Translations under genes and position numbers: made by a program
Part shown: positions 6,175-18,227 of the stretch, one piece after another
How positions within the stretch are numbered: position 1 is the first letter of the stretch
Layout: the number at the start of each line of letters is the position of its first letter
Origin: an uncultured delta proteobacterium
Lineage (GTDB): Bacteria; Desulfobacterota; Binatia; Binatales; Binataceae
Assembly (NCBI GenBank): GCA_963724765.1
Contig: CAVRVY010000001.1
Coordinates: 1,024,001-1,088,000 of the forward strand
Length of the DNA stretch: 64,000 nt
Direction of reading: 5' to 3'
The notes under the pieces: model-generated
What the model was told of the DNA's origin: nothing
The model's database searches: none
Seen by the model: only the letters and a program-made list of their open reading frames with translations

Positions 6175-8182
6175 TTAAATCTCCAGGTGCAGGTTGCCGA
6201 AGCCGTCGGCACGCAATGTGAACTCGGGCGCGACGTAGGCAGTGGCGCTGAGTTCGACCACGATCGCCGGTCCGCGAATTCTGACGCCCGCGCCGATTGC
6301 GTCGCGCGCGTATACCGGCACTGCTCGCGCGTGTCCGTGGGCGATGACTTTGATTCGGCGCACGGGCGACGGTGGCGTCCGCCCACGCGAGCGCGCAAGA
6401 CGCTCGGGTGCGGCGTTAGCGCCGGGCGCGGTCGCGCGCAGGCGCAAATTGACGACTTCGACCGCCGCCTCGGGGGCGGCGTAGCCGAAGGTGTGGCGAT
6501 GGGCCGCGTGGAAGTCTGCGGCGAAGCGCGGGGTAAGCCGCACCTCGATTTCGTAAGATTGGCCGCGGTAGCGCACGTCGGCAAAAAGCTCGACGCGGAT
6601 TTGGGCGGGGCGCGCGCCTTCCGTCGCGAGTTCGCGCCGCGCCCGCGTGAGCATCGGGGCCGCGCGCGCGACGAGGCGGCGGGCAAGGCGGCGGTAGTTG
6701 GGCGAGGTCTCGCGCACGGTGAGCGAGTATTCGCGTCCCAGCGGCGCTTGCAACGCGCCCCACGCGCACAGCAATCCGGGATTGCGCGGCAGCACGATAT
6801 GCCGGATGCCGAGGTCGAGCGCCAGTTCGCAGGCGTGCATCGGGCCCGCCCCGCCAAAGGCCATCAGCGCGAAATCGCGCGGGTCGAAGCCGCGCTCGAC
6901 GGTTATCACGCGCACCGCGCGTTCCATGTTGGCGTTGACCACGCGGATAACGCCGCTGCGCTGCGCCGATCGCGTCCGTGCGCATCGCACGGCCGAGCGC
7001 GGCAATCGCTTTTGCAGCGCGCGCGGGATAAAGGCGCATCGCGCCGCCCAGGAAATTCTCCGGCACCAGCCGCCCCGCAACCAGGTTGGCGTCGGTGACG
7101 GTCGGCGCCTCGCCGCGTCCATAGCAGGCCGGCCCCGGATCGGCGCCGGCGCTTTCGGGGCCGACCTTGAGCGAGCCGCCAGCGTCGACCGCCGCGATCG
7201 AGCCGCCGCCTGCGCCGACGGTGTGGATGTCGATAACCGGGGTGCGGACGGCGTAGCCGCCGGGGTAGCTGAGCGTGCGGATTGCGGCGCGGCCGTCGAA
7301 CAGAGAGACGTCGGTCGAGGTGCCGCCCATGTCGAAAGTGATGAAGCGATCGACGCCGGTTGCACGCACCAGCGCAGCCGCGCCGATCACGCCGGCGGCG
7401 GGGCCGGAAAGGATCGTGCGGACCGGTTCGTCGCGGGCGAGCCGCGCGCCGATCGCGCTGCCGTTGGATTGCATCACGCGCAGGCGTGCCGCGCGCAGAT
7501 CGCGCTCCAGCCGCCCGAGATGGGAGGACATCCGCGGCGCCACGTACGCGTTGACCACGGTGGTCGAGAGCCGCTCGAACTCGCGGTATTCGGCGAGGAT
7601 GCGATGGGAAATCGAAAGCGGGAGGCCAAGCGGAGTGAGCGCGCGCGCAAGCCGCTGTTCGCTCGCGGAATTGGCGTAAGAATGGAGCAGGCAGACGGCG
7701 ATCGAGTCGGCGCGGCTTGAAGCGGCGGCGCGACGCACGCGGTTAAGCTCGGCGGCGGTGAGGCCGAGCGCAACCTTGCCGTCGAAGTAAGTCCGCTCGG
7801 CGACGCCCAGGCGCATCGCACGCGCGACCAGCGGCTCCGGGCGCTCCGGCGCGAGCGAATAGAGATCGCTGCGGTTCTGACGGCCGATCTCGATAAGGTC
7901 CTCAAAACCGGCGTTGGTCAGCAGCAGGACGCGCGCGCCCTTGCGCTCGAGCAGCGCGTTGGTCGCCACGGTCGAGCTGTAAGTGACCAAATCGGGGAGC
8001 AGGTCGCGATGCGGTTCGTGCTGCACGCCTTCAAGCATCGCTTTAAGTCCGACAATAACCGCGCGCGCGGGGTCGTCGGGCGTCGAGAGCACCTTATGCA
8101 CACGGAGGTGTCCGCCGACGATCGCGACCAGGTCGGTGAACGTGCCGCCCGTATCGATTCCGATGATAACGGTCGTAGCCAT
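6175..8182 (-). pseudogene. Hydantoinase A / 5-oxoprolinase family subunit, frameshifted near 6955-6965 (pseudogene or sequencing error)
   Basis: The N-terminal part (GIDTGGTFTD, DMGGTSTDV, GPESAGADPGPACYG) is in ORF 6416..8335 and the C-terminal part (GVIRVVNANMERA, FGGAGPMHA, RYRGQSYE) in ORF 6175..7365; one extra base in GCAGCGCAGCGGC. Confidence 0.85.
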
Positions 8183-14082: not shown

Positions 14083-16258
14083 ATGTTTGTGAAGCCAAGT
14101 AGTGGGCTATTGGGTTTGGTTATGGTGGTGGGGTCGGCCGCGCTTCTGGCTCCCACGGCGCGGGCGCTCGGTCCGGTCAATGCGGCGGCCGCTCCATCGA
14201 TTCGCGGCGACGCACGATCCATCCTCGGCCAGTTCGGTGTCCTCGCGATCGTTCCGATCAACCCGGAGCAATCCTTCGTCGAGGGCTACGAAGCTTACCG
14301 CGCGCACGATCTGATGAAGACGATCGAGCGGATGACGCTCGCGGCCGACAAGTACCCCGCGCTTGCCGACTACGCGCTGTTCTATCTCGGGTCGGCCCAG
14401 CGCGACAGTGGCGACAATCAGAACGCCGCCGCGACTTTCCGGCGGCTGAGCTACGGCTATCCGCAAAGCGTCCTCGCCGATGAAGCGTCGCTCCAGTACG
14501 CAGAAATCGAATTCAAACTGGGACGGCTCGGCGACGCGCAGACGGCGGCCGCGGCGCTGGCTGCTCGCAATCCTGACCCGGGAATTGACTCGCAGGCGCG
14601 GCTAATCGAGGCGCGCGCCTCGCTCGGCCTTGGCGACGCGCAAGGCGCCTTCAGCCAACTGCAGGCGCTGCGCGAAAAGTATCCGCAGGGCGCTGCCGAC
14701 AGCGATGCGCGCACGCTCGCCTACTCGATTGCCGCGGCCCATCCCGATCTGATCGACACTCACTCGCTCGGCTACCATCGCCGCGAGGCCGCGTTGCTCC
14801 TGCACGAGGGCCACTCCGCCATGGCGCTTAGCCAGGTCGACGACGGCGCTGGCGCTCGAGCCTCCGGCCAGCGTGCATGCCGAGTTGCTGTGGCTTAAAG
14901 CCCGCGCGCTGCGGGCTGATTCAGACCGCGAGATGCTCGCGCTCGACGCCTATCTCACGTATGCGCCGCATGGCGAAATGGCTCCTGAGGCGCTCTATCG
15001 GCTGGGGCATCTGCAATGGCGTACCGGCGATACGAAGGCTGCGCGCGCGACGTTCACCAAACTGGTGCAGGAATTTCCCGCGCGCGAGATCGCGCCGGCC
15101 GCGATGTTCGACATCGGGCGCGCGTACGAGGACGACGCTCAGTGGGACCTCGCGCGCGCCGCGTACCTGCGCCTGGTCCGCAGCTATCCGCATAGCACTG
15201 AGGCCGCCGATGGCCGCTTCCGCGCGCCGTTTGCGCTCTACATGACCGGGCACTTCGACATGGCCGCGCGCGAATTCGCCTCGATGCAGCCGATGGCCGC
15301 GTCGGCCTCCGAGCGCGACGGGCTCTCGTACTGGCATGCGCGCTCGATGGAGCGCTCCGGCCAAAGCATCGCGGCCACCGCGATTTACCAGAGTCTGGCG
15401 CAAAGCACCGCGAGCAACTACTACCCTGAACTGGCGGCGCGCCGGATCGGCGCGCCCACGGCCCAGTTGGCCGCGGCGGACGCGCCTTCACTCGACGCCG
15501 CCGTGCCTTCCGTGGCGCCCGGCACCCTTGCCGCGTTTCATCTGGACCGTGTCACCACGTTGAAGCGGCTCGGCATGACCTATCTTGAACCGCCCGAGTT
15601 GCGCGCGCTCGCCAACGTGGACTCGAGCGACCCGCGCGTGCGCGATTTCGTGCTCGCCGAATTGCAGCGCACGGGCGATTGGTATGCGGCGATCGAGATA
15701 GCAGTGCGGTTGGAGAAGACCGGCAGCCTCGATTCCTCGACCACCGAGCGGCTGCGCTACCCGCGGGCTTACTGGGACATGATCGCGCAGGCCGCCAATG
15801 GCGACGCGCTCGACCCTTACCTGGTGCTGGCGCTGGTGCGCCAGGAGAGCCTGTTCAATCCGCAGGCGCGATCGGTGAGCGACGCGCGCGGCCTGATGCA
15901 GTTGATGCCGGCTACGGCCGACCGGATAGGGCCGTCGGCGGGTGTCGAGCAGGCCTCGCTCAACCTCTATGATCCTTCGCTGAGCGTGCGCGTGGGCACC
16001 GCCTATCTCAAGGACCTGTTCGAGATGTTCGGCGGCGATCCATTCAAGGCGGTCGCGGCCTACAATGCGGGCGAGCATGCGGTCCAGCAATGGAACGCCA
16101 AGTATCCCGGCGACGACGATCAATGGGTCGAGAATATCGGCTTTCGCGAAACCCGCGACTACGTCAAACGGGTGATCGGCGGCTTGCGGGAGTACCGGAT
16201 GCTCTATCCGTCGCACACGGTCTCCAGCGGCGCGACTCGGCCGCAGGGCCCGTCATAG
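14083..16258 (+). pseudogene. TPR-repeat soluble lytic transglycosylase (Slt70-like), split by a +1 frameshift near 14845
   Basis: ORF 14032..14898 has a signal peptide and TPRs; ORF 14873..16258 has TPRs and the SLT domain (RQESLF, ARGLMQLMP, AYNAG, ETRDYV); the frames join at GTC GAC GAC G GCG CTG. Confidence 0.8.
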
Positions 16259-16484
16259 GGCCGTCTTCAGCAGAACCGCCATCGGCCGGCAAGCTGCGGG
16301 CGTTCGCGCAAAGGACTTCCTGGGGAGAAAGTGCGCGCTCCGCTCACGAGGCCACTAAGCGACGGCGCTAAGGCCGGTGCCATGACACATGTCAGCGGGG
16401 TTGGGTCTCGCTCAGTCGCCCAGTGGCGATGCGACGAGCGCCTCCGATTGACCGCGATCATTCGTCTGCTTACGCTACGACGCT

Positions 16485-16655
16485 ATGAAACTGCTCAACC
16501 GCCAGTTGTTCGTCCTCGTACTTAGTGTCGGAGCGTGCGTGACCACGACCGGGTGTTTCTCTTGCACTACGGTGCATAACCCACCGCCTCAAGTCACCAT
16601 CCAGCAGTCGCCTCCTGTGGTAGTCGCGCCTAATCCGCCGCCTCCAGCCCAGTGA
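16485..16655 (+). CDS. Putative 56-aa Pro-rich lipoprotein (not in ORF track)
   Basis: MKLLNRQLFVLVLSVGACVTTTGCFSCTTVHNPPPQVTIQQSPPVVVAPNPPPPAQ; signal peptide plus TTGC lipobox-like site. Confidence 0.6.
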   Translation: MKLLNRQLFVLVLSVGACVTTTGCFSCTTVHNPPPQVTIQQSPPVVVAPNPPPPAQ

Positions 16656-16720
16656 CACTGTTGCGAGGCCCGCAATTTCGCTCATGTCTCGGAACAATGC
16701 AAAAAAATTAAAGACTAATT

Positions 16721-16815
16721 TGGCTGAGGGGGTAGGATTCGAACCTACGAGCGACTTTCGCCGCTAACCGGTCGTTTTTACAACCGGTTGCCTTCGGCCA
16801 CTCGGCCACCCCTCA
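16721..16815 (-). tRNA. Non-canonical class II (Ser-like) tRNA or tRNA-like RNA with an enlarged anticodon arm
   Basis: TGAGGGG/CCCCTCA acceptor followed by G-CCA; D arm GCC-GAGTGGCCGAA-GGC; long variable arm AGCGGC-GAAA-GTCGCT; T arm GTAGG-TTCGAAT-CCTAC; anticodon stem ACCGG/CCGGT encloses 12 nt (TTGTAAAAACGA). Confidence 0.75.
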
Positions 16816-16840
16816 GTGCGCACCTGCCAGCGCAAGATCG

Positions 16841-16912
16841 GGAGAGCGCGCTAGGATTCGAACCTAGGTCTTCGCCGTGATCGCGACGCACTACGCTCTG
16901 TGCTACGCGCTC
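16841..16912 (-). tRNA. Non-canonical short tRNA-like RNA with a 4-bp anticodon stem (central triplet UCA)
   Basis: GAGCGCG/CGCGCTC acceptor, TA linker, D arm GCAC-AGAGCGTA-GTGC, TCGC-GATCACG-GCGA, variable AGAC, T arm CTAGG-TTCGAAT-CCTAG; 3' end is TCC(C), with no encoded CCA. Confidence 0.65.
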
Positions 16913-16920
16913 TCTATTCG

Positions 16921-17220
16921 CACAATGCTTGGGACTTGGATCAGATAGATTAAACCTCTATTCCAGGCACAACTTGGCGTCTTCGAACATCCAAGGCCGC
17001 TCCTGACATGGATTAAACCGGAGGCATCGCTAAGAAGTTCCATAAGCGCCTAATCTTCCCTAAAGTTGCCGTGTGGGTTGTACAAAAACTTGTACCCAAA
17101 CACTTCGATTACCCCCCGCCATGCACCCCTGCGATGGTCCGTCCGCAAGCGGAATGCAACCGCTTACCTAAATGAGTTACTGCGAGATTTCGCAATCAAA
17201 TCAGGGAGTTATGCGGCAAT
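16921..17220 (-). ncRNA. Candidate structured non-coding RNA upstream of the tRNA-like pair
   Basis: Lower-GC tract without a convincing ORF; several hairpins and long-range complementary segments found by eye. Confidence 0.35.
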
Positions 17221-17330
17221 TTGGTTCTCGTTTCGTGCATCGTTGGCCAGCGGAATCGCTTCGGAATAGCGATAGAAACTTGTCAAGATAGCGTCCAGGT
17301 AGCTGCGGCCGTAGTGTAAAGGATCGAAGG

Positions 17331-18227
17331 GTGATAGCAGTCGGCGAGCCGCTGCCCGGACCATTCATCGGTATCGACGTCGGCGAGAATTTTCTCGACC
17401 TCGCGATCGTCGATGCTCCGCCACGCACGCTGGTTTTTAAACGCGTCGGGCTCGACGGACTGAAAGAGCCTGTCTGCGACACGCTGGCAGAGAAAATCAA
17501 AGACGCGGCGCCGGGAATCGATGCGCGCGCGATAGCACTGGTCGACTCGCCGCGATGGCCGCGCGATCTCGATTGGTCGCGCGGAACGCACAAGCGCGAT
17601 CCTGCGCCGCGCGGACGCGAGGTCGACGCCGTCCTGCGGCAAATCTATCGCACGTTAGTGGCTGTGCCCGCCGGCGAAACTCGGATGCCGGGGCTCTCGA
17701 TGTTCCCGACGCCGCGATATGACTACTTCGCGCGATGGGCGCGCGATCCACGATGCAAGCCGCATCTGAGCGCGATCGCGGCCGAACTGTTCGGCGGGCT
17801 TTTAGATGATGATCGTGATGCGGGCGGTCCGACGCAGAGCGGTGGCGGAACTTTCACTCGCTTCATGCTGGCCGGGTTCGGAACCTATCGCGCGCTGGAG
17901 CGGCTCGGCGTGCCCGTCTTCGAGTCCTATCCCGACCTGCAGTTGCGCCTTTCGTCTCCATCGACCTCGCTTCCGCCCAAAAAGCAGCACGCGAAAGCGT
18001 TGGCCGTGCGCCGTGATATCGTCGCGTCGCTCGCGGCAGGGCTTGGGCTTCGCGACGCGCCCATGCCGAAAACTGTTGACCAGGCTGACGCCGCGGCGCT
18101 GGCGCTCGCGGCCGCCTCCTCGGCGCTCGGCGATACATTGTGGGTGGTTCGCCATCCATGCGAGGGACGTTTCATGCTCGCGCTCGACGCTCGCCAGGCG
18201 CGCTGCCTCGGCATAGGAGGCGCTTGA
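17331..18227 (+). CDS. DUF429-like protein (predicted RNase H-fold nuclease)
   Basis: N-terminal FIGIDVG, ALVDSPR, GREVDA, VFESYP and DQADAAALA motifs. Confidence 0.7.
   Translation: MIAVGEPLPGPFIGIDVGENFLDLAIVDAPPRTLVFKRVGLDGLKEPVCDTLAEKIKDAAPGIDARAIALVDSPRWPRDLDWSRGTHKRDPAPRGREVDAVLRQIYRTLVAVPAGETRMPGLSMFPTPRYDYFARWARDPRCKPHLSAIAAELFGGLLDDDRDAGGPTQSGGGTFTRFMLAGFGTYRALERLGVPVFESYPDLQLRLSSPSTSLPPKKQHAKALAVRRDIVASLAAGLGLRDAPMPKTVDQADAAALALAAASSALGDTLWVVRHPCEGRFMLALDARQARCLGIGGA

Follow-up and report, generated by a model that had tools for sequence, protein, structure and literature searches.

A 64,000-nucleotide stretch of an uncultured Binataceae genome (contig CAVRVY010000001.1 of assembly GCA_963724765.1, positions 1,024,001 to 1,088,000; hereafter the window) carries on its minus strand a tRNA-shaped gene, E2, which we consider, with a probability of roughly 60%, to be the damaged and probably non-decoding relic of a tRNA-like gene of mobile DNA. 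Its anticodon arm is shorter than usual, and the one homologue that was detected, G005h, in a genome of the same genus, has an arm of normal length and is carried by a prophage-like element. The genome under study (G000) is a 5.4-Mb assembly in 4 contigs with 62% G+C. E2 is followed on the same strand by a second unusual element, E1:

16840 to 16914, minus strand: E2, tRNA-like gene (ARAGORN, Rfam RF00005, sequence, fold, homologue alignment A4)
16816 to 16839, minus strand: 24-nt spacer between E2 and E1 (sequence)

E2 is a genuine tRNA-shaped gene. ARAGORN called minus-strand 16840-16913 as 'tRNA-SeC, anticodon tca' with an 8-bp acceptor, and the Rfam tRNA model RF00005 matched 16843-16912 on the same strand with 51.1 bits (gathering score 29) over model positions 1-71. 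For comparison, an Rfam search gave 46 and 52.3 bits for degenerate tRNA copies and 66-72.3 bits for three canonical tRNAs, and the scores of E2 and E1 are like those of the degenerate copies. The acceptor is a 7-bp stem (GAGCGCG/CGCGCUC) to which an A-U and a G-C pair can be added, so that it may be drawn as 7, 8 or 9 bp; G005h keeps the eighth pair but not the ninth. U8, A9 and A14 are all found, and the D arm has a 4-bp stem (GCAC/GUGC) closing an 8-nt loop, AGAGCGUA, which is devoid of GG: Rfam aligns a C at G18, whereas the GG is kept in G005h. The variable region is AGAC (4 nt), and the T arm is perfect (CUAGG-UUCGAAU-CCUAG). It is the anticodon arm, UCGC-GAUCACG-GCGA, that is abnormal, with 15 nt compared to the usual 17, which is also the length in G005h. 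When the arm is read as holding a 7-nt loop, an A takes the place of U33 and a C that of purine 37. The 3' end is CCC, and E2 does not encode CCA, which is encoded in 43 of the 59 tRNAs called by ARAGORN in this genome. Thus E2 shares with a canonical elongator tRNA (RF00005) the 7-bp acceptor, U8, A14, the 4-bp D stem, the 4-nt variable region and the UUCGAAU T loop, and differs from it in the 15-nt arm and in lacking U33, purine 37, G18 and an encoded CCA.

All of the 20-22 stem pairs of E2 are Watson-Crick, and the predicted fold is more stable than those of 200 out of 200 shuffled sequences (z = -3.9); the cloverleaf, at -32.1 kcal/mol, lies 2.5 kcal/mol above the minimum free energy (MFE) structure at -34.6 kcal/mol. 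An earlier note on this DNA, made from the letters of the window, had described the same acceptor, U8-A9, D loop, 15-nt arm and T arm, and was right in every detail, as it was in placing the two elements in tandem with E2 about 25 nt upstream of E1 (the spacer is 24 nt). A public metagenome contig (X1, record 3) shows 0 differences from the window over 16786-17215, although the run may be the source sample itself and is no independent proof. Other Rfam matches were dismissed: the small RNA SpF41 matched weakly (26.6 bits versus a gathering score of 52), and Plastid-ycf2 and MIR531 were far under threshold.

G005h emerged from a search of 150 relatives with R1, a covariance model built from E2 alone. 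The search gave a single outlier, in congener G005 (C12:243167-243243), with 62.8 bits, the next matches being ordinary tRNAs at 54.2 bits or less. In the Rfam tRNA model G005h scores 55.1 bits, and its anticodon arm has a normal 5/7/5 layout, with stem UCGCC/GGCGA and loop CGACCAU. In alignment A4, the arm of E2 corresponds to that of G005h without a 'CC' in the 5' strand of the stem and with two transitions in the loop. By homology, the loop of E2 reads CGAUCAC; position 33 is a G in both genes, so that U33 is absent from both family members, and the middle 'anticodon' base is U in E2 and C in G005h. The two-base gap would then be a deletion in E2, a polarity that we infer from the normal arm length of G005h. 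The central UCA is a by-product, because without the two C's the stem of E2 pairs again in another register.

Comparison of the two genes indicates that the fold of this family, or its tRNA-like body, has been under selection, and the support for this is real but thin. E2 and G005h are 81% identical over 73 shared columns, and their differences occupy 2 of 42 stem columns versus 10 of 29 unpaired columns (Fisher one-sided p = 0.0015). Both stem differences belong to one acceptor pair, C-G in one gene and U-A in the other, and are thus compensatory. Beyond the tRNA-like unit the flanks could not be aligned, with the exception of 5 nt. The earlier note had proposed to look for homologues and covariation, the lack of both counting against its reading; what was found is one homologue and one compensatory pair.

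E2 and G005h are the only two detectable members of a small tRNA-like gene family on mobile DNA in this genus. A covariance model made from both copies (R2), which gives them 96 and 101.8 bits, returned no third member from 151 genomes of the class, where the next best matches reached 58.9 bits at most and those checked were ordinary tRNAs, nor from 151 genomes of the phylum, where the next reached 63.5 bits at most and the top matches were tRNA-Arg and tRNA-Glu. The genome sets searched overlap, and the unpublished genomes G033, G505, G598, G623, G628, G719 and G730 are included in the sets of 150 relatives, in the class set of the R2 search and in the BLAST sets of 61 relatives and 301 class genomes described below; some of them gave tRNA-Ser rows and none a match to the E2 family, and no positive claim depends on them. 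Within G000, BLAST found no second copy of E2, whose best identity to the class-I tRNAs of its own genome is 63%. BLAST of E2 against 61 relatives gave no match and missed G005h as well, although G005 was included, and BLAST negatives for E2 are weak because of this. Against 401 genomes of the phylum, BLAST returned just 19-22-nt matches to the T arm, together with one short non-tRNA match (80% over query positions 6-50). When the whole insertion that holds E2 (see below) was compared to 301 genomes of the class, with 2 candidates per genome scored, only tRNA-Ser matches to E1 were obtained, and among the matches listed for phage and plasmid collections (18 records each), all fall in E1. Descent of the family from tRNA-Gly was considered and rejected, the similarity being merely generic.

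Pattern scans of larger collections gave no further relative. A loop-based pattern hit 11 loci in GTDB contigs, and the 4 tRNAs called by ARAGORN in 3 of them are not E2-like. In JGI metagenomes a D-arm pattern had 0 matches, and the loop pattern matched at least 120 stretches; nearly all of the 80 loci (84 matches) examined in this non-exhaustive scan belong to one tRNA-derived repeat that is unrelated to E2, with a best local score of 23/74. The repeat, on contigs L078-L157, is so abundant that it swamped the scan, and it fills the contigs of a few metagenomes; it carries GATCACG in its anticodon-arm region and, at a guess, is of eukaryote type. In IMG/VR, four specific patterns gave 0 matches and a looser D-arm pattern at least 122 stretches; among 80 of these loci, R2 gave its highest score, 56 bits, to ordinary phage tRNAs. 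We note that at least 122 viral contigs of this collection (L249-L328) have tRNA genes with the D-arm stem GCAC/GUGC of E2 and G005h, a stem found in none of the aligned class-I tRNAs of G000 that were shown.

The genomic surroundings of both genes point to mobile DNA. G005 shares synteny with four congeners up to about position 7933 of locus L223, where it breaks off within a receiver-domain open reading frame (ORF), and the following features lie beyond the break:

L223 8037-9344: P4-type integrase with an arm-binding domain
L223 10170-10243, complement: G005h

The order after the break is P4-type integrase, a 139-aa ORF, G005h, a GNAT acetyltransferase gene, the large and small terminase subunits and a DUF3854 protein, with G005h at 830 bp from the integrase gene. 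G005h is thus cargo within a prophage-like element and not its attachment site. A scan of the tRNA strand upstream of G005h predicted neither promoter nor terminator.

In the window, E2 and E1 sit in an insertion of approximately 1 kb between two conserved genes:

16300 to 17300: strain-specific insertion holding E2, E1, a small ORF and an upstream module (synteny, junction alignment, metagenome contigs over both junctions)
14873 to 16258, plus strand: left flank gene, TPR and SLT lytic transglycosylase (Pfam, conserved synteny)
17331 to 18227, plus strand: right flank gene with a weak DUF429 match (Pfam, conserved synteny)
16292 to 16299, plus strand: left 8-bp direct repeat AGCTGCGG at the insertion edge
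17301 to 17308, plus strand: right 8-bp direct repeat AGCTGCGG at the insertion edge
16485 to 16655, plus strand: 56-aa ORF with a lipoprotein-signal-peptide-like start and a Pro-rich tail, the coding core of a repeated segment of about 200 nt
17096 to 17326, minus strand: conserved non-coding TTGACA module on the strand of E2 and upstream of it, perhaps a promoter or leader

The SLT-domain and DUF429-like genes are 1.07 kb apart in the window, versus 31-118 bp on one contig in 11 of the 16 congeners; four of the 16 are uninformative on this site. In congener G009 (L248, C2:741600-743800) the same site holds another stretch, of 1.6 kb, with a gene for a 407-aa TPR protein, and the intergenic site is thus variable within the genus. 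Contigs from two other metagenome studies match E1 and both insertion edges, and in the metagenome contigs X2, X4 and X7 E2 itself is outside the region covered; the runs listed as matching the locus include none of RNA. As for the direct repeats, the 8-mer occurs 4 times in the window versus 5 times expected by chance, and only its position is suggestive. E2 behaves as mobile cargo in two respects, being missing at the syntenic site in relatives and having its homologue in a mobile element.

The insertion is a mosaic, whose other segments recur beside degenerate or duplicated tRNA genes in contig C4 of G000 and in congener G003. The 56-aa ORF has four other copies (five aligned) at 69-78% DNA identity, in G000 and two congeners (L042, L043, L044), with an invariant ATG and no Pfam match. 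A 75-aa minus-strand ORF on the 3' side of E1, P0001, was rejected as a gene, the conserved frame there being that of the plus-strand 56-aa ORF. The ORF in the segment downstream of E1 shows no similarity to the ORF adjoining G005h. A paralogue of the 56-aa ORF (75%) at G000 C4:575107-575350 adjoins a degenerate copy of tRNA-Arg. On that contig (L077), the degenerate tRNA-Arg(tcg), at 574959-575035, has acceptor mismatches and scores 46 bits, and an intact tRNA-Arg(acg) is found 7.6 kb away at 582611-582687; two DDE transposase genes, an HNH endonuclease gene and a DUF2321 gene lie between them. The arrangement suggests an island with a tRNA at one end and the decayed duplicate of that tRNA at the other.

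The TTGACA module has 4 copies of approximately 170 nt in G003 (L045, L046, L047, L048) at 70-76% identity. Three of the four sit 150-260 nt downstream of tRNA-Phe or tRNA-Arg genes, and their surroundings include a pair of tRNA-Phe copies 2 kb apart; the copy in L048 lies between two tRNA-Phe copies, ahead of a gene with a Peptidase_S74 domain. The module has no Rfam match, and the search for a conserved structure was not convincing (covariation term +3, with many pairs broken). The promoter and terminator scan of 16300-17400 predicted none.

The neighbour of E2 is altered in the same part of the molecule:

16721 to 16815, minus strand: E1, a tRNA-Ser(UGA) paralogue; long variable arm, G73, CCA encoded (Rfam 46.5 bits, alignment, fold)

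ARAGORN labels E1 'tRNA-???'. Global alignment of E1 to the genome's own tRNA-Ser(UGA) gave a score of 61, and BLAST including the 3' flank gave 75.5% identity over 143 nt, the likeness to this locus extending about 50 nt into the 3' flank; tRNA-Ser(UGA) copies of relatives match at 79-84% (BLAST). In E1 the anticodon arm has become a perfect 10-bp hairpin with an AAAA loop (MFE fold, z = -5.7), and the U1-A72 pair and one pair of the T stem are altered on both sides when compared to tRNA-Ser. E1 is unlike random decay, because such a hairpin needs several insertions and substitutions that fit one another. With R3, a covariance model made from E1, no homologue with an extended arm was found over 150 relatives: E1 scored 121.7 bits and ordinary 90-nt tRNA-Ser genes 85.4 bits at most. 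SerRS recognises the long variable arm and G73, not the anticodon. As a pseudo-tRNA at an island border would, E1 duplicates a host tRNA, whereas E2 does not. The earlier suggestion that two adjacent genes with altered anticodon arms point to selection thus finds support in E1, with its concerted remodelling, and not in E2, whose change looks like a simple deletion.

For E2 we propose the following course of events. It would have arrived in the genome together with E1, within the mosaic insertion. Two C's would have been dropped from a C run in the 5' strand of the anticodon stem, and the shortened stem would pair in a new register, giving 4 bp and a 7-nt loop with UCA in its middle by chance, while the acceptor, D and T arms were left untouched. 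If E2 were transcribed, RNase P and RNase Z would probably still excise the RNA, because its acceptor/T-arm half is intact. Since E2 lacks both U33 and purine 37 and its arm is 2 nt short, it most likely decodes nothing, and we infer a loss of function. In kind, E2 comes closest to the aberrant tRNAs and pseudo-tRNAs that prophages and genomic islands carry. As with such genes, E2 is strain-specific, its homologue lies between integrase and terminase genes, and the segments that flank it recur by duplicated or degenerate tRNA genes. It differs from them in copying no host tRNA (63% at most), and the intact G005h also lacks U33, so that this is no standard phage tRNA.

Several points weigh against the view of E2 as a damaged relic. 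Perfect Watson-Crick stems are unlike the outcome of long neutral decay, which leaves a recent lesion or an RNA that continues to be used. G005h lacks U33 too, so that the family may never have decoded and the deletion may not matter. The TTGACA module, upstream and on the same strand, could drive transcription of E2, and the concerted remodelling of E1 hints at a possible use of both elements outside decoding. The covariation signal, for its part, consists of one pair in a family of two, and the observed values were reached in 259 of 500 shuffles, a control that is powerless with two sequences.

Several of these points give some weight to the main rival explanation, possible if not probable, in which E2, and perhaps E1, is a working RNA from mobile DNA that does not take part in decoding. 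Such an RNA might serve as an RNase P/RNase Z substrate punctuating a transcript, as a small regulatory RNA with an active 'anticodon' loop, or as a decoy for tRNA-binding or tRNA-cutting enzymes. The anticodon arm, being unused in decoding, might then be free to vary. The bias of conservation towards stems and the compensatory pair, in genes whose flanks are unalignable, agree with it, and since both members are devoid of U33, non-decoding may be the norm of the family. In E1 the arm has been rebuilt into the long hairpin while the long variable arm, G73 and CCA were kept, and the conserved upstream module lies on the same strand as E2.

Against such a working RNA stands the frame-breaking 2-nt deletion in the arm of E2 when compared to its sole homologue. 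In addition, no promoter or terminator was predicted in 16300-17400, some 450 genome searches with covariance models gave no more members, the long-hairpin homologue of E1 is absent from 150 relatives, and the insertion holds no partner gene pointing to a function. The earlier idea of a tRNA mimic or processing signal may still hold, the cloverleaf body being intact and its stems apparently selected, as judged from one homologue. Satellite phage P4 offers an analogy in its CI RNA, which confers immunity and is excised by RNase P: it, too, would be a small RNA of a mobile element that is matured by the tRNA machinery without being a tRNA, and G005h lies near a P4-type integrase. E2 shows no sequence or Rfam match to it at the thresholds used, and the likeness is an analogy only.

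A broader version of this proposal, in which E2 and G005h form a previously undescribed family of non-decoding tRNA-like RNAs on mobile elements, kept for a job other than translation, appears rather doubtful. If true, such RNAs could act as small regulators matured by RNase P or as decoys for tRNA-targeting host enzymes, and E1 could be a carrier of serine that is barred from the ribosome. Should E2-family RNAs be used at all, it is probably not for decoding, and they would then enlarge the small set of tRNA-like RNAs known to serve other purposes. The interest of the finding is modest, and lies in a tiny family of tRNA-shaped genes without U33, on mobile DNA in an uncultured soil lineage, that evolves while preserving its stems.

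It is unlikely that E2 is the scar of a site-specific integration, that is, a pseudo-tRNA or attachment-site remnant left by integrase recombination in the anticodon arm. Some integrase subfamilies do recombine within anticodon loops, and such an event would account for the fact that the alterations of E1 and E2 are confined to the anticodon arm. About 50 nt of the 3' flank of E1 also resemble the tRNA-Ser(UGA) locus of this genome, copies of further insertion segments lie beside duplicated or degenerate tRNA genes, and an integrase gene lies 830 bp from G005h. A parent tRNA for E2 was nevertheless found neither in its own genome (best 63%) nor in the 401 phylum genomes (BLAST). In addition, the junction of the G005 island falls in the receiver-domain ORF and not in a tRNA, with G005h internal, and there is no integrase in or beside the insertion of the window. 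Finally, the 5' and 3' halves of both E1 and E2 fit perfectly, which is unexpected for a hybrid of two sources.

The remaining explanation, that E2 decodes UGA as an atypical tRNA, be it a suppressor or selenocysteine (Sec)-like, is not supported by the comparison with G005h, and we regard it as highly improbable: E2 is very unlikely to read UGA stop codons, nor is it a tRNA-Sec. This reading, which the earlier note had offered as an option, draws on the UCA in the centre of a 7-nt loop and on the 8-9-bp acceptor that can be drawn. By homology to the 5/7/5 arm of G005h, the UCA is an artefact of the 2-nt deletion. E2 moreover has A33 for U33 and C37 for a purine, misses G18 and does not encode CCA, and the listed genes of the window and of the G005 island read open under the standard code.

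A canonical selC is also present on another contig of the genome, encoding a 96-nt tRNA-Sec with 8/5 acceptor/T stems, a 6-bp D stem and a long variable arm. With its UCA triplet, and with a 5-bp T stem on which the acceptor may be drawn as 8-9 bp, E2 resembles bacterial tRNA-Sec, and it is because of the UCA and the possible longer acceptor that ARAGORN labels it SeC. It lacks the long variable arm and the 6-bp D stem with its 4-nt loop, all of which the 96-nt tRNA-Sec of this genome has. The earlier statement that E2 bears none of the hallmarks of tRNA-Sec therefore holds for the variable arm and the D stem, but not for the possible 8-9-bp acceptor with UCA. As a caution for annotation, a standard tRNA finder will name E2 a second selenocysteine tRNA.

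Two precedents from the literature were considered for UGA reading. The first is a survey in which tRNAs with a 4-bp anticodon stem make up 5.6% of 1.7 million bacterial genes, and which describes a 4-bp-stem tRNA-Trp (Blastocrithidia-type) that promotes UGA readthrough (Fakih et al. 2026, PMC13092985). In that survey, '4-bp anticodon stem' denotes an arm in which one terminal pair is unpaired; the arm still has 17 nt, and the tRNAs can be typed (PMC13092985). E2 is like them in having four anticodon-stem pairs and unlike them in being 2 nt shorter, in lacking U33 and in having no assignable identity. Since its arm is physically 2 nt shorter than those that the survey describes, the readthrough precedent is not transferable to E2, and a short anticodon stem in a genome scan should not be equated with the 4-bp-stem tRNAs linked to UGA readthrough.

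The second precedent is provided by selC* tRNA-Cys and allo-tRNAs of soil bacteria (Mukai et al. 2017; review PMC7609411), some of which combine UCA with U73, some of which lie near transposon genes and some of which are pseudogenes; Cys-type opal tRNAs exist (PMC7609411). U73, C35 and A36 of E2 resemble part of the tRNA-Cys identity set. The acceptor/T arms of selC* tRNA-Cys and allo-tRNAs are of the 8/4 or 9/3 kind, and their variable arms are long and their anticodon stems longer than that of E2 (PMC7609411). E2 differs in its 5-bp T stem, 4-nt variable region and shorter anticodon stem.

Other odd ARAGORN calls were seen in G000. Two have long variable arms, namely a 91-nt 'tRNA-Cys(gca)' with an 8-bp acceptor (C4:64275-64365) and an 88-nt 'tRNA-Pro(tgg)' with CCA (C1:265448-265535); a 75-nt call at C4:37370-37444 has a 6-nt anticodon loop, and an 81-nt call at C2:392592-392672 an 8-nt loop.

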